IMG/VR virus record: IMGVR_UViG_3300042555_002918
Coordinates: 32,001 to 96,000 of that record
Length of the DNA: 64,000 bases
Direction: 5' to 3' (one strand)
From: a virus
Positions 6,955 to 23,279 of the stretch are shown here, one piece after another; position 1 is the stretch's first letter, and every line of letters starts with the position of its first letter. Made by a program: the position numbers and the translations under genes. Under the pieces are notes generated by a model. That model had not been told where the DNA came from and ran no database searches. It worked only from the letters and a program-made list of their open reading frames with translations.

Positions 6955-7707
6955 TTAGGCTTTGAAAGCACCGCGCCGCCGAAGGTGGTCGATTGCAAGC
7001 TTTCGTACATCTTCGTCCTCATCGTGAAGGCCTTTTTCGATGTGTCCAATGTGAACCTTGGGATGCTCCATTGCCGCGAACCTCACGAAGCTACTGTCAT
7101 CGTTAAGCGCCTGGTCAATGTGCCCTTCGTGGGAGTTAGGATGTCGAATTGCGTCCTCTCTTACGGACTCGTCCTCATGACGAAGCCCCTTAGAGATATT
7201 GTCATGGGTTGCGTTTGGATGCTCCATAGCGGCATTTGCTACCATTGAGTCTTTATCATCAAGGGCTTTGTCGATGTGATGAGGTTGAGCATTAGGATGA
7301 GAGACGGCCTTTAACCTTACCCAGTAGTCATTATCATTCAAAGCATGGTCGATATGATGATGCTGCACGTTAGGATGCTGAATTGCATTTGCTCTTACGT
7401 CAGAATCAGGATGCCTGAGTTTGTTGAAGATTGGGTCTCCTCCTTGGTCAGCATGGAAATGCCCACCGGCTCCCTTTAATTTCTCATACGCAGCATTTAC
7501 ATGCTTCATTGCTTCAGGACTTCCACCTAGGTCAGGATGATGTCGTTTTGATGCTGCCCGGAAGGCAGTCTTCAATTCATCCTCGGAGTGATCAGGTTCC
7601 AGACCAAGGACAGACCTTGCCTCATCGTGGCTCATACTCTCAACGAGGGAACGGAAATCCTTATCTATTTGCTCTTGTATTAAATCTTGAAGCGTCTTCT
7701 TGGACAT
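6955..7707 (-). CDS. Leader-bearing J-domain plus HEAT-like repeat protein
   Basis: MSKKTLQDLIQE leader; J-domain (ARSVLGL...HHPDLGG...VNAAYEKL); about 5 HPN/D..VR repeats; TATAAATA at 7754-7761. Confidence 0.85.
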   Translation of the reverse strand: MSKKTLQDLIQEQIDKDFRSLVESMSHDEARSVLGLEPDHSEDELKTAFRAASKRHHPDLGGSPEAMKHVNAAYEKLKGAGGHFHADQGGDPIFNKLRHPDSDVRANAIQHPNVQHHHIDHALNDNDYWVRLKAVSHPNAQPHHIDKALDDKDSMVANAAMEHPNATHDNISKGLRHEDESVREDAIRHPNSHEGHIDQALNDDSSFVRFAAMEHPKVHIGHIEKGLHDEDEDVRKLAIDHLRRRGAFKA

Positions 7708-7784
7708 ATGCGAGTAGCGTTCAATAGAGAGACCTTTCTGGTCGTAACGAGTCTATTTATAGAAGTGCCGCCTCGCTCCCCGGA

Positions 7785-8033
7785 TCAATTCCCCGTGGTA
7801 CCATCAAATCGTTTTCGTAGGAGATCAAAAGCACCGTTAATTGTAGCCCAAGCCAGCCGGTTACCTCCAAGATTAGGATGATGTTTTGACACAAGTGCCC
7901 GGTACGCCACGTGCAGGTCCCATTCGGTGTACTTTCGGGGAAGTCCCAAGACCCTTCTCGCCTGACGTTCTACGTAGGCCATGTGAAGTGTCCTTATCGG
8001 GTGTGTAATGATGGATATAACCTTTGATCTCAC
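7785..8033 (-). CDS. Small J-domain protein with HPN instead of HPD
   Basis: ARRVLGL...AYRALVSKHHPNLGG...INGAFDLL. Confidence 0.7.
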   Translation of the reverse strand: MRSKVISIITHPIRTLHMAYVERQARRVLGLPRKYTEWDLHVAYRALVSKHHPNLGGNRLAWATINGAFDLLRKRFDGTTGN

Positions 8034-8067
8034 TCATGCCTCGTGCATCTGACTAGAGTAAACAAAG

Positions 8068-8143
8068 CGGGCGCATCCGACTCGAACGGATTCGACGCGA
8101 GGAGCCTTAAGAGCCATTAGGTCCACTCCCCAACAAGCGCCCA
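8068..8143 (-). ncRNA. tRNA-like RNA with non-canonical anticodon arm
   Basis: Acceptor TGGGCGC/GCGCCCG; T arm ATCCG-TTCGAGT-CGGAT; D-like arm; anticodon arm does not fold canonically. Confidence 0.55.
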
Positions 8144-8257
8144 ATGAAACCTTTCCGGGAAAAAAGGCTTAGCTCAAGCACTCACGGGTACTACTGCGGT
8201 CGCGCTGGTCGGCTTATTGAGGGCTGGCTACCTCCCTGCCCCGACACCCATTATCCT

Positions 8258-8292
8258 ACGGTACTAGAGTGAGTGATGCGGCGAGCATTACC
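8258..8292 (-). promoter_or_regulatory. GGTAATGC-N21-TACCGT promoter
   Basis: Member of a motif class with fixed 21-nt spacing. Confidence 0.65.
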
Positions 8293-8581
8293 CTCTCAAA
8301 GGTTCTTTTTTCGATTCGTTGAAATGAGTAGCTGTAATATCAGCAAGAGCCCCATCTAATGTCAGAAATTCACCTAGGCATCTGGTGATAAATTGTGAGC
8401 TGGTTTTGTAAATCTGAACCAGAGCTAGGAAGCGAACATGCTCGCCAGTTTCAGCGGAGGTAATGTAGAAAATTGATCCTACCTGCTTCCCTCTGTAATG
8501 AACCTGTCTACCGTGGGCAGTCTCCGGCCCTAATTCGTAATCGGTATTTGCGATGATAACCTTGTCTGTCTGAGCGGCCAT
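8288..8581 (-). CDS. Late hypothetical protein
   Basis: GATAAATA at 8589-8596, 7 nt before ATG. Confidence 0.65.
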   Translation of the reverse strand: MAAQTDKVIIANTDYELGPETAHGRQVHYRGKQVGSIFYITSAETGEHVRFLALVQIYKTSSQFITRCLGEFLTLDGALADITATHFNESKKEPLRG

Positions 8582-8682
8582 AGCCAGGTATTTATCTTAA
8601 TAAAAGATAAATTTCGTGCGCAATTTGCGTATTTTTCATTGGAACGCTAAAGTGACGTTTGAAGGCGGACGATGGTCTTAGT

Positions 8683-8886
8683 ATGAGACGAAAATATACC
8701 ATCAAAACTATTACATCAGACGGCCAAGAGACAACCCAGACTTTTACCTCCAAACGAGAGGCAAAGCTCTATTGCCAGCAGACCGGACTTCGCCCGGAGC
8801 GCCTGGACGTCGAGATTACAGTCCAAGGTGGTGGAGCTATACAGTCTGAGAGGTTTGTGAAGGAGGCTCGGTCTTATGACGCATAA
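8683..8886 (+). CDS. Hypothetical early protein
   Basis: ATG after TAAAG-N15-GACGAT and the TTTGAAGGCGGAC motif. Confidence 0.6.
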   Translation: MRRKYTIKTITSDGQETTQTFTSKREAKLYCQQTGLRPERLDVEITVQGGGAIQSERFVKEARSYDA

Positions 8887-9082
8887 AAAGCCTAAGTCCC
8901 TCTGGGGCCTAAAACGTATTTCAGGGCTATGGGAGCACATTCGCGACGTTTCTCCAGAGACCGAAGCTCAGTGGCTGAAAACCTTTCAAGAGGATGAGGA
9001 CTACAAAGGAGCTAAGCGAGATTATATAGAATTTAAGGTTTCAAGCTTGCGGCCCAGGTACCAGTCAATCTTGTCTAACTAG
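8876..9082 (+). CDS. Hypothetical protein
   Basis: AGGAGG SD; overlaps the previous ORF. Confidence 0.6.
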   Translation: MTHKKPKSLWGLKRISGLWEHIRDVSPETEAQWLKTFQEDEDYKGAKRDYIEFKVSSLRPRYQSILSN

Positions 9083-9091
9083 ACACGGAGG

Positions 9092-9301
9092 ATGAATATG
9101 ACTAACCGACTCACGTTGAAAGAAGCAGCCCAAAAGTCAATTCAAACCAGCGACCTGGTAATGTTTTCCAAGGTAGTCGACCAGCTACGGTCTATGGGCT
9201 TTAACTACGAAGACACCCAAGCCTTCTTTTTTAAGACGACAGGGATCGATGCCAATACCTTTGAAGACCTGTGCTATGAGTCGGACAGGCAATCTCTCTA
9301 G
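9092..9301 (+). CDS. Hypothetical protein
   Basis: GGAGG SD; 69 aa. Confidence 0.6.
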   Translation: MNMTNRLTLKEAAQKSIQTSDLVMFSKVVDQLRSMGFNYEDTQAFFFKTTGIDANTFEDLCYESDRQSL

Positions 9302-9741
9302 TTAGCCTTTAGGTGCTTCTTATATCCTTTCCAGAAAAGCTTTCCCTTCTCGCTTTGGTCACTTGATGGTTTAATCGCTAGCCCCTTCTCTCGGGCATGG
9401 TCATACATTGCCGTGGCGACCCCTCTTCGCTGCCACCCATAGTCAGTATGAAGCTTATGTGCCCGGAAACCCTTTCCCCTAGGGTCCTTGTGAAATATTG
9501 CAAATCCTATCCCATGCTGAGGCCCCATTCCCGCTGGGTGCTCCTTAGCATGTTTTACAATCTCACTCCTGGCATAGCTTGTGTCGTCGGTTGAGGCGTC
9601 GGGATGGTAGGCTACTACCATATGGGCTTTTCTGCCTCGGTCAGATGGGTGGTCAATCTCCTGCATGTGGAGAACGGTACCGCTTGGGAGCTTCTCAGGC
9701 AGCCCAAGGCGCTCAACTATGAATTGTAAGAAGGTCTTCAT
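9298..9741 (-). CDS. GNAT acetyltransferase with T4-like capsid-targeting leader
   Basis: MKTFLQFIVE start; acetyl-CoA motif WQRRGVATAMY; QSEKGKLFW; GATAAATA at 9751-9758. Confidence 0.8.
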   Translation of the reverse strand: MKTFLQFIVERLGLPEKLPSGTVLHMQEIDHPSDRGRKAHMVVAYHPDASTDDTSYARSEIVKHAKEHPAGMGPQHGIGFAIFHKDPRGKGFRAHKLHTDYGWQRRGVATAMYDHAREKGLAIKPSSDQSEKGKLFWKGYKKHLKAN

Positions 9742-9783
9742 GACGGGAGGTATTTATCTCCCGTCGAAGACGACCCATTTTAG

Positions 9784-10224
9784 CTACTTGATCCGCTTGC
9801 ATTTCGACCCACACGCCTTTCGGAGCTTTTTCTCCAAGGTAATACGGGCCTTGTTGTCCGCAGTTGCTGCGTTAAGGTTAGCAGTTGCTGCGTTATAGTT
9901 ACCGGTTAAAGCTTGGTGATCTGCCAGGAGGGAGTTATGAGCCCCCATACAGGCATTAAGGTCTTGGTAATCTGCGTAAAGGATGGCTTCGACGGCTGGA
10001 CCATAGAAAACGCTCATCTCGGTTCGGCCATATTGGTTGTGAGTAAACCAGTTGTAATAGTTGTCCGATGCGACAAAGCACCTCGGAACGTAACCAAAAG
10101 TCTGCCCAAATAAATTCCTTTCCGAATCCGTGATGTAGCACCCAGGAGGGATGCCCTCCGACTGAGCTACGGGAGCCCCTATGACGCAGAAAAGGATTGT
10201 GGCAAGAGTAGTGAGCTTTTTCAT
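9784..10224 (-). CDS. Signal-peptide-bearing protein with coiled coil
   Basis: MKKLTTLATILFCVIGAPVAQS signal-like N-terminus; basic Cys-containing C-terminus; AAGGGGG SD. Confidence 0.7.
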   Translation of the reverse strand: MKKLTTLATILFCVIGAPVAQSEGIPPGCYITDSERNLFGQTFGYVPRCFVASDNYYNWFTHNQYGRTEMSVFYGPAVEAILYADYQDLNACMGAHNSLLADHQALTGNYNAATANLNAATADNKARITLEKKLRKACGSKCKRIK

Positions 10225-10330
10225 ATTTCCCCCTTAAATGAGCCGGTAGACCTATGGTAGGGCACCCCAACATTTGAAATCAACGGCGTTTGCGCATATT
10301 GTTTGAAGGCTGATCGCTAAGTCATTGAAA

Positions 10331-10365
10331 GGTAATGTTTGACGATCAAACTTTTTCGTTAGAGT
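10331..10365 (+). promoter_or_regulatory. GGTAATGT-N21-TAGAGT promoter
   Basis: Same motif and spacing as the other copies. Confidence 0.55.
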
Positions 10366-10437
10366 CACTTCGAAACGTATACAATTCCAGGTTTCCCTTA
10401 TTGATAGTTTGAAGGCGGACTGCGTATACTTGACGTT

Positions 10438-11184
10438 ATGACGACACAATGGTTTTTTGCTGACGGAAGAAGCTACGAGGGACAGGCCCCGACGGGTGAC
10501 GCTGCGACGGCTACCATCTCGTACATCGATACATGCCCCCGCTGTAATGGAAGCGGTAGATACCCGTCTATCGCATGGGAGGGGAAATGTTTGAAATGCA
10601 ATACAGCAGGCCGCGTCAAGATTACCGCTAGGATTTTCACCAGCGAAGCACTTTCGCGTTTGCAAGCCTCTAAGCAAAAGCGCCAAGCCGCTAAAGAGGC
10701 AAAGCGTCAGGCAGAGAGAGCCGCAAAGGTAGCTGCACTGGAGGAGACTAAAGCGCAATTCACAGCTCAGAACCCAGGGCTTATTGAGAACTTACGCTCT
10801 CACACGGACTCCTTTGCCACTTCGCTTGTTGAGCAGTTTGACCGAAAAGGTACCCTGACTGCAGCCCAGATAGCTGCGGGACAGCGTAAGATTGATCAGA
10901 TTGCAAATGAGCTTCCAAGCGCTCACCTCGGGACAGTCGGGGAACGCCGAGAGTTTACCCTCACGGTGACTTTTACCAAGCTGTCTGAGGGCCGCTTTTG
11001 TAGTACCTTTATTGCCTTTAAGGACAGCGCAGGAAACCGCGTGACATGGAAGGCTTCCGGCTGCTCAGCCCTCCAGGCGGGTGATGTTGTAACCGGCCTC
11101 GCTACCGTCAAGGAGCACTATGAGTACCAAGGTAAGAAACAGACCGCTATCACACGGGCTCAGTTTAGCCTGAAACGGGAGTAG
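10438..11184 (+). CDS. DnaJ-type zinc finger plus C-terminal OB-fold-like protein
   Basis: CPRCNGSG and CLKCNTAG; HLGTVGER...ATVKEH.EY.G.KQT.ITR; TATACT 7 nt before ATG. Confidence 0.75.
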   Translation: MTTQWFFADGRSYEGQAPTGDAATATISYIDTCPRCNGSGRYPSIAWEGKCLKCNTAGRVKITARIFTSEALSRLQASKQKRQAAKEAKRQAERAAKVAALEETKAQFTAQNPGLIENLRSHTDSFATSLVEQFDRKGTLTAAQIAAGQRKIDQIANELPSAHLGTVGERREFTLTVTFTKLSEGRFCSTFIAFKDSAGNRVTWKASGCSALQAGDVVTGLATVKEHYEYQGKKQTAITRAQFSLKRE

Positions 11185-11209
11185 GCGAGAAATCCGCCGA
11201 GCGCCCTTT

Positions 11210-11467
11210 TTACTCTTCGTCGTCTAGCTTTATGGTATGCACCCCGCGTACTTCTAATATGTCGCGCAAGGTTGTTTCATTTTCGTGCAGGTAATCGCAA
11301 AGCTTTTCAAGAAGCTCTTTCTGCCCCGCCAGGAACGCCTTGTAGAACTCGCCTGTCTTAGATGTGTCCTCGGTAAGCTTGTCGTCTAGCCTAGTCGATG
11401 TCTCATCGACCCAAAACCAAAGGTTTTCGGCGCTTGTGTACTTGTGCTCTTTCCAGTGTCTACTCAT
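11210..11467 (-). CDS. Hypothetical protein
   Basis: 85 aa ORF coupled to the upstream gene. Confidence 0.55.
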   Translation of the reverse strand: MSRHWKEHKYTSAENLWFWVDETSTRLDDKLTEDTSKTGEFYKAFLAGQKELLEKLCDYLHENETTLRDILEVRGVHTIKLDDEE

Positions 11468-11472
11468 GACAA

Positions 11473-11991
11473 TCAGTCCTCATCCTTTGGGTCATACCCC
11501 CACTCGTGAATGGAGTCCCCGTTCGTGAAAACGTGCTTCGCTGGAACTCTCATACTGGCGACTTTGTAATCTCCGTTTAGAGCGCCTTCCCCATGGTCGT
11601 GTGCGTACTCTTTCGAAATAGTGACCCAATCTCCCTTTTGAATCATGTGATGGAGGGGAGACTTGCCGCTCTTCTTAGCTTCCTTGAAAGCGTTTTTATA
11701 GACGTCTGTCGGGATAGCCCGGTGAATCCACACCTTGTCGTCTGGCTTATGTCTCATAGTAGTCACTTTAAAATGAGACTTTGAGTCATACCCATTTCCG
11801 TAATCTGAATAGTACCTAAAGCCTTTATGGGAGTAGAAATCATCCGGGTATGTGCCCTTAGCCGTAACATCGTGCAGGGGTGAGCCATCGGTAGAGTCAG
11901 GTGCGGTATGCTCCCCTCGGTACTCCTTTTCGTTAAGGAATGACCGGATCGCCTCGGCGATAATGTCAGTTTCGGTTCTCTTCTTAGCCAC
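11473..11991 (-). CDS. Leader-bearing protein with putative ART-like domain
   Basis: MAKKRTETDIIAEAIRSFLNE leader; VWIHRAIP...GDWVTISKEYA..HG...EWGY; TATAAATA at 11999-12006. Confidence 0.7.
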   Translation of the reverse strand: MAKKRTETDIIAEAIRSFLNEKEYRGEHTAPDSTDGSPLHDVTAKGTYPDDFYSHKGFRYYSDYGNGYDSKSHFKVTTMRHKPDDKVWIHRAIPTDVYKNAFKEAKKSGKSPLHHMIQKGDWVTISKEYAHDHGEGALNGDYKVASMRVPAKHVFTNGDSIHEWGYDPKDED

Positions 11992-12022
11992 AGAGGGCTA
12001 TTTATAGAGAGCCGATTCTCAT

Positions 12023-12220
12023 CTATTCCTGAACAGCCGGAGGACTAGGTAACTCCATCCAGAAATCGACCCATGAGAGCTCAGACCCAAGGGCTGAGTA
12101 CTTAAAAGCTCCCCCCACAAAGCACACGATCTGAAAGTTCTCCCCAAAGGCTACAAGGTAAGTGCCCCCTTCGGTGGGGTGCGTAGCCCGGTCATCTTTA
12201 TCGAATTTGTTCCAGTTCAT
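12023..12220 (-). CDS. DUF551-like protein
   Basis: MNW...P...YLV...V..WMELPSPP pattern. Confidence 0.65.
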   Translation of the reverse strand: MNWNKFDKDDRATHPTEGGTYLVAFGENFQIVCFVGGAFKYSALGSELSWVDFWMELPSPPAVQE

Positions 12221-12261
12221 ACACCCTCACATGGCCTTGGGAATAAGGTCCTATGTGAGTG

Positions 12262-12296
12262 AGTGTACCTGAGATAGTGACCCGTCGAGCATTACC
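12262..12296 (-). promoter_or_regulatory. GGTAATGC-N21-TACACT promoter
   Basis: Motif with fixed spacing. Confidence 0.65.
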
Positions 12297-12528
12297 CCTT
12301 TGCTAACTGACGCAAGGCTTCACTCTTTGAAAACTCATTAAAACTGTCCCAGTCCTCTCTCAAATAAGTGAGAACGTGGCTTAGGACCTTGGCGTCCTCT
12401 GCTCCGACCACTAGGGAGTGACCTTTGAGTGCCCCACCCTTAGCCACAATCGATTTAATTGATTCGGTGATGTCAGTCAGTACATCATGAACAGTCTCTG
12501 CCGATGGTACGCCAGTCTTCATCTCCAA
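12292..12528 (-). CDS. Hypothetical protein
   Basis: 78 aa; GAGGA SD; GGGAATGT-N21-TACTCT upstream (12557-12591). Confidence 0.55.
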   Translation of the reverse strand: MEMKTGVPSAETVHDVLTDITESIKSIVAKGGALKGHSLVVGAEDAKVLSHVLTYLREDWDSFNEFSKSEALRQLAKG

Positions 12529-12603
12529 TCCTCATAAAGGTAAATCGCCCGAGGGTAGAGTATGAAATGTGAACAATCGGGGAACATTCCCCTATCGAGT
12601 AAA

Positions 12604-13212
12604 TTATTTGGGGAAATATATCCCGATGCCTTCAGCGATGATGTCCTGTTCCGACACGCTGTCTATGGTGAGGCTCTCGTTAACATTGCCCGAGCGAGCG
12701 TTTATCTTATTTAAAAGATTCTTAGCTGCGCCTAAAAGCTTTGGATGAGCTTTATCAAGAATTTGCAACGTCTCCCCTTTCTCTTTGAAATACGTCTTAG
12801 AGAACTTAGGGTCGTGCTTTGCAATAGAATGACTGTTCGAGATAAGGTCCGCAGCTTTCACTGTATGAGCGATGTGACTCCCAGACTTTATCTTGTCATT
12901 ATAGGCGGCTTTCCGCGTTGCCCTATTTCCATCTACCCCAGGCTTACCCCTGTCCGTTAAGGTTTCAACATCGTCCGCAACTCGCTTCCCGAAATGATGA
13001 TGAATCTCATCATAGGTCGTAGGGGTGTCTTCTAAGGTATCATGGAGCCATGCTACGGCCTTGGCGTGCTCAGTTTCCTGTGGAGTATCCGCCATGGACA
13101 TTGCAGCAACGTCCCGTAGGTGATGCCAGTAGGGTTCCCCGGTGTACTTTCTCTTTTGTTCCCCGTGACGCTCGATAGCAAACTGACGGGCTCTTTTTAC
13201 CAAGTCTGACAT
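12604..13212 (-). CDS. HD-domain hydrolase, RelA/SpoT hydrolase (small alarmone hydrolase)-like
   Basis: H..QKRKYTGEPYWHH, AWLHDTLEDT, FGKRVA..V..LTD, VKAADLISN; CATAAATA at 13238-13245. Confidence 0.85.
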   Translation of the reverse strand: MSDLVKRARQFAIERHGEQKRKYTGEPYWHHLRDVAAMSMADTPQETEHAKAVAWLHDTLEDTPTTYDEIHHHFGKRVADDVETLTDRGKPGVDGNRATRKAAYNDKIKSGSHIAHTVKAADLISNSHSIAKHDPKFSKTYFKEKGETLQILDKAHPKLLGAAKNLLNKINARSGNVNESLTIDSVSEQDIIAEGIGIYFPK

Positions 13213-13255
13213 ACACTCTAATCTACTTAGACGAGTGTATTTATGAGGAAGATTT

Positions 13256-13711
13256 CTAATCTTCCCGAGCGGGTACGTGCCTCTTTACAAAGAAGCTATG
13301 CCCTACGTCCTTGGACCCCTCTTCGTCTTTTTCAATATCCGGAACGTGGCTTTTGTGAATCCTCACCACTGCTACCGGTGGAGGGTCATCGTGAGAGTGA
13401 AACAGGTGGTCTTCGACCTTATCGGCCCAGGCCTTCGCCGAGGAGCGACTAGAGAGAAATGCTCTTCCCTTGGAATGAGCCGGATACGCCCCAGCAGTAA
13501 ACATGGACTTTGTGCCAGTTCCGCCCGGCTTTAGCCCATGTTGCACTATGGCCTTTGCCGCCGGTTCACTTGTTGCGTGATACAGGTAGTCATCCTCGTC
13601 ATCGCGGTACTTAAGCGAGTCGTATGGGACAAGCTCAAAGCGGGATTTGGGAGAGGTAGCCTCTGTAAACGTCGATATGGCTTCCGCTAATAGGTCATGG
13701 TCTTTTCCCAT
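13256..13711 (-). CDS. Leader-bearing ADP-ribosyltransferase-fold protein
   Basis: MGKDHDLLAEAISTFTE leader; YLYHATS...AI..HGLKP and AFLS motifs; CATAAATA at 13718-13725. Confidence 0.65.
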   Translation of the reverse strand: MGKDHDLLAEAISTFTEATSPKSRFELVPYDSLKYRDDEDDYLYHATSEPAAKAIVQHGLKPGGTGTKSMFTAGAYPAHSKGRAFLSSRSSAKAWADKVEDHLFHSHDDPPPVAVVRIHKSHVPDIEKDEEGSKDVGHSFFVKRHVPARED

Positions 13712-13783
13712 GAGCCATATTTATGACCGGCGGAAAGAGTACTGGGTCGGCTGAGTACTAAGGTTTTACAAGACGGAGTAACG

Positions 13784-13875
13784 AAAAAGCCAGCCGCCCT
13801 CCCCTCTGACACCGTTCTGCTTCGAGGTGGAGTGCGTGGCAGGAAACGGTAAAAACACCCCCTAGCGGCTGACTG
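13784..13875 (-). ncRNA. Candidate late small hairpin RNA
   Basis: GATAAATA at 13880-13887; AGTCAGCCGC pairs with GCGGCTGGCT followed by TTTT; inner stem ACCGTT/AACGGT. Confidence 0.45.
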
Positions 13876-14013
13876 CAGGTATTTATCACCTACGAAATAC
13901 TGGGAATGTGAGGGGAAAGGTCAACTTTTGTAGAAAAGTAGTGTCTAAGCTGTTAAGCTATGTTTGAAGGCGGACGATAGGCTCTATGTAAGCAGTTTAT
14001 AGCGAGGTTCACT

Positions 14014-14283
14014 ATGGCAAAGCAAGTTTACGCACGAGCGACACAGACTGGGAAGCTCTTCCTTGAGCTTGCAACCGTACACTCAAACGAAACGAGCTTT
14101 AAAGAGACCGCTACCTACCTAGGCGACTATGGCTACGTGATTAACCTTAAACGCGGCATGGACAAGATTCAAACCATCCGCTGCAAGCGCCTTAAGGCCT
14201 TCATCTCAGAGGTCGAAGGGGCCGCAAAGGAGCGCTTTGGGTCTCACTATCGGATTCGCGAATTTGTCCTTATTGGCCACTAA
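14014..14283 (+). CDS. Hypothetical early protein
   Basis: TTAAG-N15-GACGATA and TGTTTGAAGGCGGAC upstream; GAGG SD. Confidence 0.65.
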   Translation: MAKQVYARATQTGKLFLELATVHSNETSFKETATYLGDYGYVINLKRGMDKIQTIRCKRLKAFISEVEGAAKERFGSHYRIREFVLIGH

Positions 14284-14319
14284 CCCCCTTTCTCACGTCT
14301 AGCTTTTAAGAGGTACACC

Positions 14320-14856
14320 ATGGCAACGAACACTCCTTGGGGCAAATCACAAAATTCAACTCAGTTCGCTCGTGGGCTCACCTTCCATACGACCGCCGGG
14401 CACGGTGGGTTCTTGGTTAGTAAGGGCTACGCTGAAAAGCACCTTACCCCAAGTGCCCTTAAACGAGCCGAGGTCTGGGGCGGCTACTATGCCTTCGAGG
14501 AAGATTGCGCCGCTGCAATCGTCGAATTTGAACTCCCCTACACTCGTGTCCTCTACACGAACTTCCAGGAGGTCACCGACGAAAAGGTCTTTAAGACCCT
14601 CTCGCGCTGGTACCCCGACTATCTCATCGAGCGTGGGTTCTCCCCGGAAGCCTCCCTCTACGCTCAGTGGCTTGTCTCTAAAGAAGACCAGAGGCTTAGG
14701 GCTGAGCGCTCCCCGGATCTGATTGTCTGTGCCGAAGGCGTTGATTCCAACACTGTCCGGGTCACAACGGCAGACCGCAAGGAGCACCTGGTTACCTATG
14801 AATCATACCAGCGCCGCGAAGGCCTAAACCTTCTTTCAAAGTGTGTATTAGCCTAA
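14320..14856 (+). CDS. DUF7007-like protein
   Basis: TPWG.......A.GL....TAGHGGF and FEEDC motifs. Confidence 0.7.
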   Translation: MATNTPWGKSQNSTQFARGLTFHTTAGHGGFLVSKGYAEKHLTPSALKRAEVWGGYYAFEEDCAAAIVEFELPYTRVLYTNFQEVTDEKVFKTLSRWYPDYLIERGFSPEASLYAQWLVSKEDQRLRAERSPDLIVCAEGVDSNTVRVTTADRKEHLVTYESYQRREGLNLLSKCVLA

Positions 14857-14862
14857 AGGGAG

Positions 14863-15742: not shown

Positions 15743-15760
15743 CAACAAAAGGAGATATGT

Positions 15761-16006
15761 ATGACAGTTGAACGACTTGTGCTCTCGCTCGATATCCCAG
15801 TGCGCCTTCAGATAGTAGCCTGGGTCACTATCACTGAGGCTCAAGCGTACATTAAAGCATGTAAGACTGAAGCCCCAGAGCTCCCAACGGAAAGGGCAGC
15901 ATACGACTTTTTAAAGATCATAAGCGCCCTCTCCATGCCAAGTGAGGATTACCGAAAGGTGAAAGACTTTCTATTTGCCGATAGTGAATTACTCGCCGAT
16001 GCGTGA
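15761..16006 (+). CDS. Hypothetical protein
   Basis: AAGGAG SD. Confidence 0.6.
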   Translation: MTVERLVLSLDIPVRLQIVAWVTITEAQAYIKACKTEAPELPTERAAYDFLKIISALSMPSEDYRKVKDFLFADSELLADA

Positions 16007-16011
16007 CGGGG

Positions 16012-17472
16012 TTACTTCTTAGCTCTCTGCCCAGTGGAGATGCCGCGAAATGCGGCATAGGCCCTATTGGAGAGGCGTGCATGACGGGACCTCTTATCCC
16101 CAAGCTCATGGTATCGTGTGTACTCGGGCGTCCCTGGCTTTGCGCCATCGAGCTTGTCCATTTCCCGACCGAGTGAATCGGCTATCTCACTGTGTCGCTG
16201 ATGGACGCTGTAGAGCTTATCCCTAAGGCCGCTTGCCGAACCTGGGTCAGCCGTACCTATTGATTTCCCCGTCGTATAAGAGGGGTGTGAGAGAAAAGAG
16301 GAGTTTCCGTACCAGGCTTCTTTAAGAGCGCCCTTATCGGTTAGGAACTTCTCAACTCGCGTGAGGTGTTGAGAAACGTGACGCCGTCCAGTGCGCTTAT
16401 CCTTGATGGTGTATTTGAAATCTTTGCCTGGATCGGCTTTGGGTCTGGCCTCAATTTCATAATCGGGATGGTCAAATCGGTACACGCCACTAAGTCCATC
16501 TTTTGTCTGGGCTGGGATCTGTTCCGAAAAGCCTAACTTTTTAAGCCGTGCTTTGTAGTTTTCCTCGATGAGGGACTCGGTACCTTCGGAGACGGTACCC
16601 TTAGCGTGCTTTTTCACAAGGTCAGATGCCCACGAGACAACCTTCTTGGGAAAGAACTCGGGGTTATCAAATCCGACTCGGTCAGTGTGGGAGTAATGGA
16701 CGGGATAGTCCGATCTCCAATCGTCCGAGAGGTGATAGAAGGAGTGGTTATCCTTAAGCCGGGTCACGTGAGAGAGGGTGTGCTTACCCTTAGTGCCAAG
16801 CTTTACCTTTTTGAAATCCTTAGACGGAAAAGGCTCATGCTCGGATTCCGCAGCCTCACTCAGGCCGCCGTATTGGCTTGCAGCCCGCTTGGCCTTTTCG
16901 ATCTGGTCTTGGGCTTTCTCCTCTGCGTCCTGGTGAGGTCTAACTGAGGCATAACGACTGAGGTTATGTTTGAATTTTTTGAATTGCTTATCAAACTCTT
17001 CCTCATTACCCGCTTCCTTTGCGCGACCGCCCTTGAGCATGTTTTTCATGCTGTTTCTCATGGTCTTTTGCATGATTCGGTTTAACTTGGTGATCTTTGA
17101 GTCACCGATCTGCTCTTGAAGGTGAGTATCGATAGCTTCAGTGATAATGTCACCTTCGCTCTTCTTCGTAGGCACAGAAACGCCCTCTTCAATCTTGTGA
17201 AACTTCTTAACAGCCGCTACGGCCTCGTCATGTGTGTTAAATTCGCCCAGGCGACGGGTAACATAGTGTGAGATGCCATGTTTGCCTTTTCGCTTAGAGA
17301 CGGCGTAGGCATGGTGGCCCTCTCCCTTGTCGGCCATGGTGGTGACATCCACTCGTGGGATGACGTCAACGTGTCCTACAAGGTCCCCGGCCTCTTTCCC
17401 CTTCATGAGAATGGTACGATTGCCGTGAGCTTTGATCTGATTGATGCCCTCTGCGAGTGTCTGCTTTGCCAT
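16012..17472 (-). CDS. Multi-module putative internal head polyprotein
   Basis: 486 aa, K/H-rich; internal leader copy KKSEGDIITEAIDTHLQE; many L/I/V-x-E sites; TATAAATA at 17480-17487. Confidence 0.75.
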   Translation of the reverse strand: MAKQTLAEGINQIKAHGNRTILMKGKEAGDLVGHVDVIPRVDVTTMADKGEGHHAYAVSKRKGKHGISHYVTRRLGEFNTHDEAVAAVKKFHKIEEGVSVPTKKSEGDIITEAIDTHLQEQIGDSKITKLNRIMQKTMRNSMKNMLKGGRAKEAGNEEEFDKQFKKFKHNLSRYASVRPHQDAEEKAQDQIEKAKRAASQYGGLSEAAESEHEPFPSKDFKKVKLGTKGKHTLSHVTRLKDNHSFYHLSDDWRSDYPVHYSHTDRVGFDNPEFFPKKVVSWASDLVKKHAKGTVSEGTESLIEENYKARLKKLGFSEQIPAQTKDGLSGVYRFDHPDYEIEARPKADPGKDFKYTIKDKRTGRRHVSQHLTRVEKFLTDKGALKEAWYGNSSFLSHPSYTTGKSIGTADPGSASGLRDKLYSVHQRHSEIADSLGREMDKLDGAKPGTPEYTRYHELGDKRSRHARLSNRAYAAFRGISTGQRAKK

Positions 17473-17658
17473 AGAGGTCTATTTATAAAGCCCTCTTTGC
17501 CCTGAGCGACCTTTGCAATTTGACGTTTAGCAAATGTACCCACTGTCCCCCTTTGGGTGCATTTGCTCAGTGTGTACGACTAGCGAGAGCGCTCTTTCCC
17601 TACGGAGATCTGTGATTTACGGAATGTAGAAAAGGTCAAATTGGAGGGATCACTAAAG

Positions 17659-17693
17659 GGTAATGCTCTAGCCTTGCCCAGTTTTCGTATCGT
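17659..17693 (+). promoter_or_regulatory. GGTAATGC-N21-TATCGT promoter
   Basis: 8 nt before the methylase ATG. Confidence 0.7.
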
Positions 17694-17701
17694 TTATCGA
17701 T

Positions 17702-18697
17702 ATGAAAGACCAAATCCTGATTGGCGATGCCTTAGAGATCTTAAAGACCCTACCAGACGGCATCATTAACACCTGTGTTACGTCTCCACCTTATTTTGGC
17801 CTCCGGGACTATGGCGTTGATGGTCAAATAGGATTGGAGCAAGGCCCAGAGCAGTTCATTCAAAAATTGGTAGAGGTGTTTCGTGAGGTCCGTCGTGTTC
17901 TAAGGGACGATGGGACACTGTGGGTCAACATCGGGGATAGTTATGCAACGATGCAGCGCAGTGGAAAAAAAGAATCTCCAGGGGTTGGAGCCAAACAAGC
18001 GATGCCTCCCATTAGAACAAAAATTAGGTGGGGGAAGGGTGGCGGTACAAATTTCTGGTGGCGTATTCCAACTGAAAAGTACGGGGATTTAAAACCCAAA
18101 GACCTCATAGGAATCCCTTGGATGCTTGCCTTTGCGCTTCGTGCGGATGGCTGGCACTTAAGGCAAGACACCATCTGGCATAAGCCAAACTCAATGCCTG
18201 AGAGTGTTAAAGACCGCTGCACCAAGGCGCATGAGTACATATTTCTACTAAGCAAATCTCCAAAGTATTACTTTGATAGCGAAGCTATACAAGAGCCGTC
18301 CGTTTCCACTCATCCTTCAGGTAATGGGTTTAAGAGAGAATGTCGGCTTTCGTACAAAGATAAAAATGGCGCAAGAGGAAATGATCAGCCATGGCAAGTA
18401 AAGCCTACTCGTAATCGCCGCTCGGTGTGGAGCGTAAATACAAAACCTTTCAAGGAGGCACATTTTGCAACATTTCCGGAGAAGCTAGTAGAGCCTTGTA
18501 TTCTAGCAGGCTCCCCGAAGGGTGGCTTGGTGCTTGATCCCTTTTTTGGGGCGGGGACTACGGGACTTGTAGCAAAGAAGCTTGGGCGAAATTACCTCGG
18601 TGTAGAGATCAATCCAAAGTACGCACAAATTGCAAGTGAGAGAATTGACAAATGGTTAATCTCAAACGTCTTGCCGGTAGATCACATTTTTGAATGA
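17702..18697 (+). CDS. DNA methyltransferase, N6/N4 family (beta class, SPPY)
   Basis: VTSPPY, W.KPN.MPES, HFATFP, VLDPFFGAGTT motifs. Confidence 0.93.
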   Translation: MKDQILIGDALEILKTLPDGIINTCVTSPPYFGLRDYGVDGQIGLEQGPEQFIQKLVEVFREVRRVLRDDGTLWVNIGDSYATMQRSGKKESPGVGAKQAMPPIRTKIRWGKGGGTNFWWRIPTEKYGDLKPKDLIGIPWMLAFALRADGWHLRQDTIWHKPNSMPESVKDRCTKAHEYIFLLSKSPKYYFDSEAIQEPSVSTHPSGNGFKRECRLSYKDKNGARGNDQPWQVKPTRNRRSVWSVNTKPFKEAHFATFPEKLVEPCILAGSPKGGLVLDPFFGAGTTGLVAKKLGRNYLGVEINPKYAQIASERIDKWLISNVLPVDHIFE

Positions 18698-18795
18698 TAA
18701 CTCATTGGACAGCGGGGCGAGCCCATCGAGCACTGGTCGCGGAATGTAGAAAAGGTCAAGTTTGTCGAAGGATTAGGGACTTTCGTATCTACCCT

Positions 18796-19116
18796 TTAAG
18801 GCTTGATTGCTTGTGCGTGGGGCAATACTCGATTTTGATGGCGGGTGATTTTAGCCGCACCTATTCGGTGGTGAAACCTGATAGCGGCCAATGCCTCGTC
18901 TTCTGTGTCGTAACTCCCTTTATGAACACTAATGTCATCATCTGTCACGGAAGAGTGAAATTTGCCGTTTAACTGAGTGTATGAACCAAGAAGTTTCCCT
19001 TTAGTCTCAACATCCACTGAGCTACCCCTATGAACAAGGTCCATAGGAGTCTTTTGCTCAATGAGATGAGCATCAATCTCTTCCGTGATAATGTCTTGTT
19101 CGGTCTTCTTGCTCAT
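18796..19116 (-). CDS. Leader-bearing small protein
   Basis: MSKKTEQDIITEEIDAHLIE; TATAAATA at 19125-19132. Confidence 0.75.
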   Translation of the reverse strand: MSKKTEQDIITEEIDAHLIEQKTPMDLVHRGSSVDVETKGKLLGSYTQLNGKFHSSVTDDDISVHKGSYDTEDEALAAIRFHHRIGAAKITRHQNRVLPHAQAIKP

Positions 19117-19200
19117 AGAGAGTCTATTTATAGAGAGTGAGAAGGAGCGGTGTTAAGCAGTTACATGGGCTTATGCCCCTAGAAAGTGCTTCGGGGTGAG

Positions 19201-19227
19201 GGTATAATTATGGTATAATTATGGTAT
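19201..19227 (+). repeat. 11-bp tandem repeat containing TATAAT
   Basis: GGTATAATTAT x2 plus GGTAT immediately before the brnT-like ATG. Confidence 0.7.
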
Positions 19228-19402
19228 GGCGTTTGAGTTCGACCCCGCTGCTGTCATTTATGGCGAGGAGAGATTCCTCCCTATTGGTAAGGTCGGACCG
19301 TTTTACTGGACAGATGTTATCACTTACCGTTTCGGTAAGGTGAGATTTATATCGGTTAGGAGATCACGTGACACAGAGAAAAAGCTCCACCAAAGCACTT
19401 AA
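19226..19402 (+). pseudogene. brnT: BrnT-family toxin with in-frame internal deletion (58 aa)
   Basis: Hand translation: MAFEFDP-AAVIYGEERFLPIGKVGPFYWTDVITYRFGKVRFISVRRSRDTEKKLHQST; lacks the K...N..KHG..F segment. Confidence 0.7.
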
Positions 19403-19634
19403 GCCCATTACGGCAAAAGAGTTTGATGAAAAGTTTGACGCCGGAGAGGACGTCTCGGAACACATTCAGTGGGACAAGGCCGTTCGGCATGAGCCAAACA
19501 AGGTAAGACGGGTCAACATCGATTTCCCTGAGTGGATGATTAGAGAGCTTGACGTAAAGGCGGATCGTCTTGGGATCGCCAGACAGTCACTTGTAAAGAT
19601 GTGGGTAGCTGAGAAGTTAAAGGCGGAGAAGTGA
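19368..19634 (+). CDS. brnA: BrnA/CopG-family antitoxin
   Basis: AKEFDEKFDAGEDV...RVNIDFPEWMI..LD..A.RLGI.RQSLVKMW. Confidence 0.85.
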   Translation: MTQRKSSTKALKPITAKEFDEKFDAGEDVSEHIQWDKAVRHEPNKVRRVNIDFPEWMIRELDVKADRLGIARQSLVKMWVAEKLKAEK

Positions 19635-19644
19635 GCCTTGTAAA

Positions 19645-20238
19645 CTAATCCCTTCTAGCTGCCGCTCGAACTGCCCAGTGTGGGTCCTTAGCAGCTTTTT
19701 CTAAGTGTGATGGTTTGGCGCTTGGATTCTCTGCCGCTCCCATACGGACCATGTAGTCATTATCTGAGAGAGCCTTCTCAATGTGGTGGTCTTTAGCAAC
19801 AGGGTTCTTTGCCGCAGCGTGTCTTACTACCCAATCCTCATCGGAAAGTCCTTTTTCAATGTGGTGGTCTTGAGCCTTTGGGTGACGGGCTGCCATGAAG
19901 CGTCGCTCTGAATCGTGGTCACCGATTGCACGGTCTAAATCGATCTCAAACCCGTGGTTATCAACCTTAGTTGAAATGGATTCGGCGATGATATCTTGTT
20001 CGGTCTTTTTCCCCTCTAAGAGCTTAGCTATCTCTTGGTCGGTATGCCCGGATTGTTTCAAAGACTTTACCGCGTGCTCCCTTCCTTTATGTCGGGCGAT
20101 GAGCTTTGCTGCTTCAGACTTTGACATGCCACCAAGGAGCGATGCTCCGGCGTCACTCATTTTGAGTGTTGATGCTGCAATTTTTAACTGATGCTTAACT
20201 GCATCTTCAGTAAGCGATAGTGTGGTCTTTTTGGACAT
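19645..20238 (-). CDS. Leader-bearing protein with C-terminal HEAT-like repeats
   Basis: MSKKTTLSLTE; internal KKTEQDIIAESI; D.D..VR..AA.NP repeats. Confidence 0.75.
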   Translation of the reverse strand: MSKKTTLSLTEDAVKHQLKIAASTLKMSDAGASLLGGMSKSEAAKLIARHKGREHAVKSLKQSGHTDQEIAKLLEGKKTEQDIIAESISTKVDNHGFEIDLDRAIGDHDSERRFMAARHPKAQDHHIEKGLSDEDWVVRHAAAKNPVAKDHHIEKALSDNDYMVRMGAAENPSAKPSHLEKAAKDPHWAVRAAARRD

Positions 20239-20241
20239 ACC

Positions 20242-20484
20242 CTATTCCTTTTCGCGCTCTACTTTATGCTCAGGTACTTTTATAGACTCGTATTCACCGA
20301 CGTCCACAACGTAGAAGGGGCTTCCGTGGCGGTAGCCTTGGTCATATCGGACAACTTTGCCTGATGTCATTTTGCCCTTATGCGGCACTCTCACCTTGGT
20401 TCCTTCTGGGTGACCACGTAAAGCCTCTCCAAGGTAGGTCTCAATTGACTCAGCAATAAGGTCCTGTTCTGACTTTTTGGACAT
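20242..20484 (-). CDS. Leader-bearing small SH3-like protein
   Basis: MSKKSEQDLIAESIETYLGE then GTKVRV...GKVV...YVVD. Confidence 0.7.
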   Translation of the reverse strand: MSKKSEQDLIAESIETYLGEALRGHPEGTKVRVPHKGKMTSGKVVRYDQGYRHGSPFYVVDVGEYESIKVPEHKVEREKE

Positions 20485-20524
20485 AGTGAGCCCTTTCATT
20501 GGGGGATGATTCTTAAATTACTTG

Positions 20525-21232
20525 CTACTTAGTCTCATCGTCCAGAAAGTCAGAGAAGTGACCCCAACCGTCCTTTTTAAGAAGACCTCTTTCGTAGGCC
20601 GCTTTTCTAAGTCCGCTCTGTACCCGTTGAGATGCCCAGTGGGTTTTATGAGCTTTGCCTGCTGGTCCGCTACTTTCTCGGTACGCGCTTCGCTGCTCTT
20701 CAGACCATTCACCTGGGTGTGCAGGAAGGTCTCTCGTTCTTGTCTGATGCGCCGCAATCAATTCCTGATATTTCTTCTCGGACCTTTGATGAATGTCATC
20801 AACGCGCTTTACTCTCTGCTTAAGCTCCTCGGGGCTAATCTTCATGCCATGCTTATATGCAAGCTGCTCAGGAGCCCACGCTTTCTTAGCCCTGGCCTTG
20901 TCGTCAGAGATAGCCTCACTCACACCGCCGTATCGTAAGGCTGCATGTTTGGCCTTTATCCCCTCCAACTCGGCCTTCTCCTCAGCGGCCCTATCTGCCA
21001 TGAGCACCGTCTGGAGATCGTGGTGACGCCCAAACTTGCTAGCGTTCTTTTCAAATCCTGCCTTGTCGCCCTTAGCCTTTGCGGCCTCGGCGGCCTTGTC
21101 GCTCTTTGCGATGCTTTTATCCGCTTTTTGAATAATGCGATTTATCTTGGCGAGCTTTGAGTCACCAATCTTTTCCTGAAGGTCAGAGTCGATAGCTTCA
21201 GCGATTAACTCTTGTTCGGTTTTCTTGGTCAT
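20525..21232 (-). CDS. Leader-bearing two-module protein
   Basis: MTKKTEQELIAEAIDSDLQE; one module shared with 16012..17472; EAISDDKA shared with 21245..22033. Confidence 0.75.
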   Translation of the reverse strand: MTKKTEQELIAEAIDSDLQEKIGDSKLAKINRIIQKADKSIAKSDKAAEAAKAKGDKAGFEKNASKFGRHHDLQTVLMADRAAEEKAELEGIKAKHAALRYGGVSEAISDDKARAKKAWAPEQLAYKHGMKISPEELKQRVKRVDDIHQRSEKKYQELIAAHQTRTRDLPAHPGEWSEEQRSAYRESSGPAGKAHKTHWASQRVQSGLRKAAYERGLLKKDGWGHFSDFLDDETK

Positions 21233-21244
21233 AATTATCTCAAA

Positions 21245-22033
21245 TTAAAACCCGCCATTGTTGTCCCAGTCATCCTTTGCACTGTGCATCCCGTGAGCAA
21301 ACGCTCGAAGGCGCGAGGAAAGGTGTTTGTAGTGCTCCTTTTTGGCAGGGTCAGATTCTTTTGATGATCGCTCTTGGTAGGTATCAGAGTGGCTGTTGAG
21401 CTTGTCGATGTAGCGGGTGTGATGGAAGTCATCACCTTTGGACTGTTTGAGCATCTTCTTTCCAAACTCATACCCTAAGTCCATAGGGCGGCTAACGCGC
21501 TTAGAGAACCCTTCAGGCTCACCTGTAATGTGCCCAAGTTTTCCAGGGAGCTTATGCTTTGCTGCGTAGTCTCTGACTTTACCGTAGACGTTTACGGCCT
21601 TGGCCACATTAGCGTCTTTTTGGTCTTCAAGGTCGTCAAACTCTTTATGGCTAATGTAGGGGTCATCCTTTTGAGCTTGGGTGAGGTCTCGGTTCTTATC
21701 CTGGAGGTCAAGGTACGCCTTTGTAAAGACGCGCTCTGCCTTCTTGGCTTTGTCGTCAGAGATAGCCTCTTTGAGACTCTTTTTAATTTCAATGGTGGGC
21801 TTTTTGTCCTCTCCACCGCGCATAAAAGGCTCTTTGGTCCGATGCTTCCAATCAAAATCAAGTTGCTTCAGGCGTTTCTTTGCATCCTCTTCGGAGGAAT
21901 GTGAGCTTTCAAGCTTCCCGTCTATGAACACTTGATGAACCTCTCTAGCTTCGGCGATTAGTTCACGCACGAGGGAGGTCTCAGTGAGGTCGATGGCTTC
22001 CGCGATTAACTCTTGTTCGGTTTTCTTGCTCAT
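21245..22033 (-). CDS. Leader-bearing multi-module protein
   Basis: MSKKTEQELIAEAIDLTE...LIAE...LKEAISDDKA; TATAAATA at 22041-22048. Confidence 0.75.
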   Translation of the reverse strand: MSKKTEQELIAEAIDLTETSLVRELIAEAREVHQVFIDGKLESSHSSEEDAKKRLKQLDFDWKHRTKEPFMRGGEDKKPTIEIKKSLKEAISDDKAKKAERVFTKAYLDLQDKNRDLTQAQKDDPYISHKEFDDLEDQKDANVAKAVNVYGKVRDYAAKHKLPGKLGHITGEPEGFSKRVSRPMDLGYEFGKKMLKQSKGDDFHHTRYIDKLNSHSDTYQERSSKESDPAKKEHYKHLSSRLRAFAHGMHSAKDDWDNNGGF

Positions 22034-22078
22034 AGAGGTCTATTTATAGAGAGTTACAAGGTGCTATCTCGATTTGAC

Positions 22079-22393
22079 CTACTCATCAGTAGGCCCCTCT
22101 GGCATCTCCATCCAATGAGTCACGGTGTTTCCGTAGATAAGCCCTGACCACGCAGCTTGATAGGGATTCCAATAGAGAGCTTCCATGTATTTAATCTGCC
22201 CGTTGGTCACGTGAACCAAGTACTGTGAATAGGTTGATGGGAGATGATCCTTGACGTTTACCCATTTGGGCGTTGCCGCAATGTACCCGGCCAAAAAGTA
22301 CACATTGGGATCAGGTGGTGATATGGACTCAACAGGCGGCGTTTCACTCATGGTCACTACTCTAGTTAAGACAAGGCACTGAGTAACATTCAC
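22079..22393 (-). CDS. DUF551-like protein
   Basis: WVNVKDHLP...YLV...VTHWMEMPEGP. Confidence 0.7.
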   Translation of the reverse strand: MNVTQCLVLTRVVTMSETPPVESISPPDPNVYFLAGYIAATPKWVNVKDHLPSTYSQYLVHVTNGQIKYMEALYWNPYQAAWSGLIYGNTVTHWMEMPEGPTDE

Positions 22394-22713
22394 CTTTGAC
22401 CAAAAGGAGCCTTAGGCAGCACAGTCCAATACACGGGCGCTTGAGTCCTCACCTCATAGGAGAACTCATTAAGTGTGCCTGATATCACCCCTAACGATGG
22501 AATAGACCACAGTACATCCCTTTCAGGTTCCGGGGTCTCCTCTCTAAGACTCACCCACTCGGGAGCTCGTCCCATTTGGTACCCCAACGCAAAGCACTGG
22601 TGGCAGTCGGTCCATTCATGGGGAGAAAGGTCATAGACATTCTCTAGGGTCTCACGCGCAAGGTCTTTAATGCTCTTTTTCATATCCATTCCCCTATCCA
22701 ATTCTATCCACAA
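22390..22713 (-). CDS. DUF551-like protein
   Basis: WVSLREETPE...VL...YWTVLPKAP; GGGAATGT-N21-TACGGT upstream (22741-22775). Confidence 0.6.
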   Translation of the reverse strand: MWIELDRGMDMKKSIKDLARETLENVYDLSPHEWTDCHQCFALGYQMGRAPEWVSLREETPEPERDVLWSIPSLGVISGTLNEFSYEVRTQAPVYWTVLPKAPFGQR

Positions 22714-22949
22714 AAGTGTTGAAAACTTTGATTAGCCGAGACCGTACATGGTAAGCTCTCCCCTACAACATTCCCCTATGGGAATACTTCGTATGGGTAG
22801 AAGGCTTCATGTCACCTCGTCTTAAGAGGAACTTGGAATTTGTTTGACGTTTTCCAGATTTCGTAAATCAGAGGATCTTGGATTTTGGCGCTGGAGGCTA
22901 AAGTTTTGTTTGAAAGGTGACGATGTAAGAGAGGACGTGTTTGTCTGGC

Positions 22950-23279
22950 TTACTTCCCTTTAAGGCGCGCCGCGTCTCGGTCCGCTCGAATCTCACTCTT
23001 AAACTTCTTGGTGAAGGACTGATTGAAAGTCTGGAGGCGCTTAAAGGCGATATCAAAGTTCTGCTTGTGAGCTTTGAAGTCGGGCGAGTTTCTTACATGG
23101 TCAGGGGTGAGTCCGTTCTCTAACTTTGGGAACTTCGACAGTTCAGCTTTATGTCGAGAGACGTCCGCCTCAAGTGAATCTCTCGCCTGCTTCGCCCGTG
23201 CGTAGAGGTCATCTTGGCTTTCTGTCACGAATGACCTAATAGCCTCTGCGATAATCTCCCTGGCATCTTTTTTGCTCAT
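22950..23279 (-). CDS. Leader-bearing small helical protein
   Basis: MSKKDAREIIAEAIRSFVTE; GLTPDHVR.SPDF motif; CTAAATA at 23286-23292. Confidence 0.75.
   Translation of the reverse strand: MSKKDAREIIAEAIRSFVTESQDDLYARAKQARDSLEADVSRHKAELSKFPKLENGLTPDHVRNSPDFKAHKQNFDIAFKRLQTFNQSFTKKFKSEIRADRDAARLKGK

Follow-up and report, generated by a model that had tools for sequence, protein, structure and literature searches.

The stretch of DNA analyzed here (the window) comprises 64,000 nucleotides, bases 32001-96000 of the IMG/VR virus record IMGVR_UViG_3300042555_002918, a complete genome of 145,388 bp with direct terminal repeats that is, judged by its genes, an uncultured and distant T4-like myovirus. 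Within 16 kb of the window (6955-23279), 11 minus-strand genes contain copies of the same leader peptide of ~20 residues, eight at the N-terminus, two internally and one at the C-terminus (Table 1; genes and proteins are named by the lower coordinate of the gene in the window), and all 11 instances reported in an initial annotation of this DNA are present in the translations. The genome also encodes a prohead protease of the gp21 type (Peptidase_S77, PF03420, E 2.9e-35; phrog_207; genome 107765-108412, minus strand), a gp22-like scaffold protein (phrog_237), a gp23-family capsid protein, gp13/14/15 neck proteins and baseplate wedge proteins, with a baseplate protein ~30% identical to its counterparts in cyanophages and other members of the T4 superfamily. 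None of the GenBank phage records matched the window DNA, and a search with the capsid protein returned two close relatives (89% identity), whose contigs miss the leader region.

The leader follows the consensus M-S-K-K-T-E-Q-D-I-I-A-E-A-I, continued by three variable residues and usually by L-x-E, with a conserved block of 14-20 residues in which 12-14 residues are conserved. The Glu, preceded by I/L-x, is invariant in all 11 members, and a second (L/V/F)-x-E site lies ~8 residues downstream in eight of them. Both internal copies are preceded by an extra site (I-E-E↓G in 16012 and L-L-E↓G in 19645, the arrow marking the potential cut), so that the leader could be excised at both sides. Across all six reading frames of the genome, 12 stretches fit the loose pattern [IL][IL][ATQ]E[AESGQ]I, 11 of these being the leader sites. 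A hidden Markov model (HMM) of the leader recovered exactly the 11 reported copies at E-values from 9e-12 to 2e-6, and the next-best stretch of the genome scored E 1.2; as the model was built from these same copies, the informative outcome is the drop in score after them and the lack of any additional member, be it among early genes or elsewhere in the genome, which runs counter to a motif equally common among early genes. The leader set is real and highly non-random, well beyond chance. Aligned codons for the same residue were identical in 49% of cases, with all four Ala, both Glu and three Ile codons in use, and this free synonymous variation indicates that selection acts on the peptide rather than on the DNA or RNA.

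Table 1. Genes of the window that carry the leader, and two comparator genes with a canonical-type leader (coordinates refer to the window; HMM, leader model)
Gene	Strand	Product and leader position	Late-promoter box or operon position	Evidence
6955..7707	-	Leader 7639-7707, then J-domain and HEAT repeats	TATAAATA at 7754-7761, 46 nt upstream of start	HMM E 6.9e-10; Pfam DnaJ 2.3e-8, HEAT 1.3e-12
11473..11991	-	Leader 11929-11991, GTG start, then phrog_2579 domain	TATAAATA at 11999-12006, 7 nt upstream	HMM E 3.2e-10; phrog_2579 E 1.3e-31
12604..13212	-	SpoT-like HD phosphohydrolase; leader is the last 18 residues (12607-12660)	Start 43 nt past end of 13256	HMM E 1.9e-6; Pfam HD_4 E 2.2e-9
13256..13711	-	Shortened leader 13661-13711, then possible ADP-ribosyltransferase-fold domain	CATAAATA, 7 nt upstream	HMM E 1e-6
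16012..17472	-	486-aa multi-module protein; internal leader 17107-17172 after I-E-E site	TATAAATA at 17480-17487	HMM E 3.2e-10, residues 104-123
18796..19116	-	Leader 19057-19116, then small domain without assigned function	TATAAATA at 19125-19132, 8 nt upstream	HMM E 1.1e-10
19645..20238	-	Two-module protein; internal leader 19951-20016 after L-L-E, then HEAT		HMM E 4.3e-10, residues 77-96; Pfam HEAT 1.5e-11
20242..20484	-	Leader 20425-20484, then 60-residue, possibly SH3-like domain; start is the second ATG of the listed open reading frame	Operon downstream of 21245	HMM E 8.8e-12
20525..21232	-	Leader 21173-21232, then basic helical protein	Start 12 nt past end of 21245	HMM E 3.6e-11; mature isoelectric point 9.7
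21245..22033	-	Leader 21980-22033, second leader-like L-I-A-E at residue 28; function not assigned	TATAAATA at 22041-22048, 7 nt upstream	HMM E 1.1e-9
22950..23279	-	Leader 23220-23279, then phrog_7560 domain aligned from residue 29		HMM E 2.1e-10
47159..48199	-	Comparator, not a member: J-domain protein with canonical-type leader		Pfam DnaJ
26850..28202	-	Comparator, not a member: HEAT-repeat protein with canonical-type leader	TATAAATA at 28211-28218, 8 nt upstream	

The promoter context agrees, at the level of sequence, with the expectation that all leader genes are minus-strand late genes. The T4 late-promoter box TATAAATA occurs 17 times in the genome against ~6 expected, and is also found upstream of the protease gene, the portal gene and a baseplate wedge gene. 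One-base variants of the box precede 13256 and 22950, while 20525, 20242 and 19645 follow 21245, and 12604 follows 13256, on the same strand, 3-43 nt apart, so that each leader gene either has the box, intact or with one base changed, in front of it or belongs to an operon headed by one, and the promoter motifs consistently suggest late expression. Five minus-strand boxes (those of 11473, 16012, 18796, 21245 and the comparator 26850 in Table 1) lie 6-8 nt from the start codon without a Shine-Dalgarno sequence, and if transcription starts at the distance usual in T4, the resulting late mRNAs would have little or no 5' untranslated leader. The box-to-start distance of the protease, portal and baseplate genes is 28-35 nt, and the protease gap contains a Shine-Dalgarno-like GAGGG.

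In T4, the capsid-targeting sequence (CTS) MKTYQEFIAE is removed by a single cut and takes internal proteins (IPs), or any protein fused to it, into the head (PMC8442874), and it is the sole part shared by the IPs of T4-even phages (PMC3012670). Studies with IPIII indicate that targeting depends most on residues 4 and 7 of the CTS, and processing on residues 8 and 10 (PMC9026906). The consensus of the new leader matches six of the last nine CTS positions. In addition, ~9 other proteins of the same genome, some of them encoded outside the window, begin with a canonical-type leader (M-K/L-T-F-x-Q/E-aromatic); these bearers include two Alt-family ADP-ribosyltransferases (ARTs), one HipA-like, one J-domain and one HEAT protein, and a small protein without a Pfam or PHROG match. 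The canonical-type set within the window lies at 59418-62109, 47159-48199, 26850-28202 and 9298-9741, all on the minus strand. A BLASTP comparison of the two J-domain paralogues aligned the canonical leader of 47159-48199 to the first 12 residues of the 6955 leader and opened a 10-residue gap opposite its second half, which, together with the matching CTS positions, leads us to regard the new leaders as a CTS that has diverged and gained a second segment rather than as an unrelated invention. The initial annotation had presented a second, separate leader family; it is indeed distinct from the canonical set, but the two are probably related.

The two leader types are, moreover, exchanged on homologous cargo. 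The closest case involves 11473, whose cargo homologue gp301 of vibriophage VH7D (Schizotequatrovirus) begins with a near-T4 CTS, the homology starting directly after both leaders (35% identity, E 5e-24). Within the genome itself, J-domain cargo and HEAT cargo each occur with either leader, the HEAT repeats of 6955 being 46% identical to those of 26850-28202 over 142 residues. Interchangeable leaders on homologous cargo supply the strongest computational argument that the two leader types do the same job, and they support this view. Paralogy alone was rejected as the source of the common N-terminus, given cargo homologues with no leader or with another one, and foreign leaders that are 79-86% identical on cargo unrelated to that of this phage.

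These foreign leaders came from a search in which a profile covering residues 1-30 was compared with 1.84 billion representative proteins (E <= 1e-3). Of its 19 matches, seven belong to this genome, two are repeat proteins and ten are foreign bearers. All ten carry the leader at residue 1 and eight fall within the identity range given above, while their cargo is unrelated to that of this phage (local scores 29-57), except for the HEAT-repeat protein P0017 (137). Those foreign bearers that we could place on longer contigs (33-50 kb) belong to T4-like metagenomic phages with gp13/14/15 in the same order as here, and genes encoding ART-PolyVal, DnaJ and GNAT domains neighbor their leader genes. 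The related contigs originate from JGI and ENA metagenomes and from one sequencing run assembled by Logan. Across the seven fetched loci, some of which overlap, we counted 25 leader instances including internal ones. Two of these internal copies are seen again in assemblies made independently, which rules out faulty assembly as the source of the polyprotein form; the internal arrangement of 19645 is found in the relatives L021, L026 and L027, and one internal leader in the relatives is set in the same L-L-E↓G arrangement. The modules themselves are shuffled between relatives, with the N-terminal module of 16012 forming a stand-alone gene in L003 and a 21245-like module fused behind another domain in L021. 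Similarly, the N-terminal block of 21245, made of the leader and its second repeat, reappears on protein P0018, the remaining cargo of which is not similar to 21245, and on the protein encoded at 11296-12195 of L021. The N-terminal module of 16012 begins differently in the relatives; in the window (17448-17472, minus strand) it starts with M-A-K-Q-T-L-A-E-G-I, resembling a truncated leader with its own L-A-E site.

Searches of other kinds returned little. A homologous-protein search with residues 1-40 of 20525 found no match but 20525 itself, and neither the region (megablast and tblastn), the 21245 protein nor the 21-residue leader had a match among 50,697 phage records. Degenerate DNA patterns identified one true IMG/VR relative, L003, and the other IMG/VR and metagenome pattern matches look like chance, with the exception of L015. 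On this unrelated, short contig (ENA metagenome contig 'Hain-H51', 1.3 kb; 635-1177, minus strand), K-K-T-E-Q-E-F-I-A-E, a hybrid of the new leader and the T4 CTS, lies internally at about residue 103 and is followed by a J-domain.

The cargo had been described as mostly unrelated, which holds for most pairs: in an all-against-all BLAST of the members, these have only the leader in common. Part of the set is paralogous, as residues 102-211 of 16012 are 43% identical to residues 2-111 of 20525, 20525 is weakly similar to 21245, and HEAT repeats link 6955 with 19645. Among the cargo labels given previously, the J-domain, HEAT and HD assignments are confirmed by Pfam, while the ART-like (13256) and SH3-like (20242) labels are ESM Atlas leads, to members of the ART superfamily (PARP, Arr, DarT, Tpt1-like) for 13256 and to DHFR_2 and DUF3104 for 20242. 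An AlphaFold2 model of 13256 computed without an alignment had a predicted local distance difference test score of 44, too poor for a fold search, so the ART-like label goes back to the Atlas leads only. The phrog_2579 cargo of 11473 is a widespread phage domain labeled 'ParB C-terminal domain' in PHROGs.

Some cargo also occurs elsewhere without the leader. The phage proteins homologous to 12604 bear (p)ppGpp hydrolase annotations, and their alignment stops at about residue 155, indicating that the leader-bearing C-terminal tail is an add-on, and the homologues of 22950 in RB43 and Xoo-sp13 lack the leader. An apparent full-length match to 22950 in Xoo-sp13 was rejected because it passes through a stop codon, and the slightly CTS-like N-terminus of the RB43 homologue was rejected as a leader because it aligns with the cargo.

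The expected specificity of the phage protease fits the leader. In a HMMER alignment of the capsid protein with full-length T4 gp23, F-I-T-E↓D of this phage lies opposite F-L-T-E↓A, the T4 cut site, and the mature T4 gp23 chain in the PDB contains 456 of 521 residues, meaning that 65 are removed at exactly this point. I-T-E at the T4 gp23 cut position suggests that the protease homologue would cut at (I/L)-x-E, as found in the leader as I-(A/T/Q)-E. The leader further shares with the CTS class the form of a short N-terminal peptide on unrelated proteins, the (I/L)-x-E ending, and a genome that encodes both a gp21-type protease and a scaffold.

Taking these observations together, we consider it likely that the leader is a diverged and extended capsid-targeting propeptide of the T4 kind, with tandem cleavage sites, which also serves as a polyprotein linker. 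The tagged proteins would be made late in infection from TATAAATA-type promoters, and the leader would dock them to the prohead scaffolding core, after which the gp21-type protease would cut behind the invariant Glu of (I/L)-I-x-E and, in most members, a second time ~8 residues further on at (L/V/F)-x-E. By analogy with the T4 IPs and Alt, the freed cargo would then remain in the head and enter the host with the DNA. An internal leader might act as both address and excisable linker, turning one polyprotein into two cargo modules, and the leader at the C-terminus of the HD hydrolase could behave like the C-terminal propeptide of T4 Alt, which is likewise lost on processing (PMC9026906). Every test that could be run agrees with the portable, protease-cleavable packaging tag that the initial annotation had proposed. 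The sequences themselves establish the motif set, its confinement to genes with late-type promoters, its conservation as protein, its portability between cargos and between phages, and the occurrence of the protease, the scaffold and a capsid cut site that fits; core binding and encapsidation, cleavage after Glu, retention in the head and injection are what we infer.

Several observations weigh against a capsid-targeting role. CTS positions 4 and 7, aromatic in T4, are here occupied by Glu/Thr/Leu and Ile/Leu, respectively, a departure from the canonical family pattern MKT-aromatic-x-E/Q-aromatic-I/L-x-E, which suggests that the docking determinant differs or sits elsewhere. A canonical CTS family coexists in the genome, and a second address to one compartment needs explaining. 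When all cargo modules are counted, (I/L)-x-E sites show no depletion (12 observed and 12.8 expected), and the isoelectric points of the mature cargo, at 6.1-9.9, are not uniformly basic as in the T4 IPs, although removal of the acidic leader lifts the value to 9-10 in several members, if not all. The scaffold protein has 11 (I/L)-x-E sites where 7.9 are expected, an excess that is not significant (p 0.14). Finally, the phage is known from a metagenomic record alone.

Some of these features would suit a leader that serves processing alone. As a protease-recognition propeptide or linker, it would hold harmful enzymes such as the ART-like, HD hydrolase and J-domain proteins in an inactive state, or tie modules together, up to the moment of the protease cut; head targeting would come from something else, or the proteins would be components of the scaffold core that are later discarded. 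The tandem (I/L)-x-E sites, the extra site before the internal copies and the C-terminal copy are what a cleavage cassette would be expected to show, and the lack of conservation of the T4 targeting residues 4 and 7 points in the same direction. However, the number of conserved residues is far above that of a three-residue protease site, the protease works inside the prohead and its substrates must therefore reach the prohead, and in T4 a single short peptide does both targeting and processing. Moreover, the cargo of the nine end-tagged proteins contains three (I/L)-x-E sites where composition predicts 8.5 (p 0.02), as would befit proteins that are kept rather than degraded; this scarcity fits cargo that has to survive the protease and lends weak support to the capsid-targeting reading. 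We therefore regard a pure processing role as unlikely.

The leader might instead be a docking helix for another partner or place, such as another virion compartment (neck or tail), a chaperone of phage or host origin, or a copy of itself, rather than for the head interior. The leader is predicted to be helical, at low confidence, the coexistence of two leader families could reflect two destinations, and the location of the proteins is here something we infer. Against such a destination, the invariant Glu after I-x and the second x-E site, as well as the alignment with the canonical CTS and the swap with VH7D gp301, all point to the prohead and protease pathway, and we know of no precedent for a tag of this type directing proteins to tails or chaperones, which leaves this explanation quite improbable.

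Conservation in the service of the nucleic acid, either as a start-proximal element of near-leaderless late mRNAs or as a promoter-plus-leader recombination cassette, would accord with the late box 6-8 nt from the start codon, the missing Shine-Dalgarno sequence, the A-rich first codons and the mobile regulatory cassettes that are reported to mediate shuffling in T4-type phages (PMC2839356), but is highly improbable given the free synonymous variation among same-residue codon pairs and a motif that is kept inside reading frames and at a C-terminus, far from any start. Recombination at a shared cassette may well explain the swapping of cargo, though not the conservation of the peptide.

Returning to the capsid-targeting reading, we speculate, as a possible but doubtful extension, that this clade runs a two-address packaging system in which two CTS classes load ~20 proteins, about a tenth of the genes, with the new class doubling as an excisable linker. 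Polyproteins may then be addressed once and cut into several effectors inside the head, and the two classes might dock at different sites of the core or set different copy numbers. Such a system, if true, would provide injected counter-defence enzymes with a 'cargo bus' that is modular and able to evolve.

Several neighboring genes of the window are recorded here. Late genes on the minus strand alternate here with genes on the plus strand that belong to another promoter class, among them an N6/N4 DNA methyltransferase (17702-18697, plus strand; Pfam E 6e-54) encoded on the opposite strand amid the leader genes. A reprolysin-like M12B zinc metalloprotease (24964-26253, plus strand; Pfam E 6e-18), unusual in a T4-like phage, adjoins the neck genes, and its position is kept in the relatives L003 and L021. 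The tail and baseplate block includes an open reading frame of 2126 amino acids (36547-42927, minus strand).

If the capsid-targeting reading is true, the known repertoire of head-packaged, injected phage proteins, so far a few IPs, would become a large arsenal with swappable members that includes J-domain/HEAT proteins, a SpoT-like HD hydrolase and a probable ADP-ribosyltransferase, and CTS addresses could diversify inside one lineage. It would also provide a simple sequence rule to predict the injected effectors of uncultured T4-like phages, and a second, possibly orthogonal packaging tag together with a self-excising linker for the engineering of delivery by phage capsids. In addition, the presence of two leader classes in one system would make the question of what a CTS binds in the core testable, by comparison of the two.

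Compared with known systems, the leader is most reminiscent of the T4 CTS, with which it shares a short N-terminal peptide on unrelated proteins, the I-A-E ending, a gp21-type protease with a scaffolding core, and late genes as judged by the promoter motif. By contrast, it has ~20 instead of 10 residues, a second x-E site ~8 residues downstream, and internal and C-terminal uses, and its 11 bearers plus the ~9 canonical-type proteins of this genome compare with a handful in T4. T4 Alt, a packaged ADP-ribosyltransferase, is likewise an enzyme that travels in the head, and gp21 trims both of its ends (PMC9026906), which offers a precedent for a C-terminal tag and for enzymatic cargo; the Alt propeptides are, however, unlike the leader, and a Pfam match to the Alt family is absent from all 11 proteins. 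In the giant phages phiKZ, 201phi2-1 and SPN3US, many head proteins are cleaved behind the Glu of a three-residue motif, propeptides contain redundant or tandem sites, and paralogous inner-body or ejection proteins have conserved N-termini and diverged remainders (PMC5694885). Their propeptides differ in using an (A/S/G)-x-E motif and in often exceeding 100 residues, whereas the leader uses I/L-x-E and has ~20. In this phage the capsid protein uses I-x-E, and A-x-E is under-represented in the scaffold protein (4 observed, 9.3 expected). The polyvalent proteins of Iyer et al. 2017 reportedly combine several effector-type domains per polypeptide and are thought to be delivered with the DNA. The proteins described here resemble them in stringing together effector-type domains, and ART-PolyVal domains adjoin leader genes in the relatives, but here a repeated leader with protease sites joins the modules and most members have a single domain. 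New in this phage are thus the extended form of the leader and its use as an internal linker and at a C-terminus, while the likely principle, that of the CTS, is already known.

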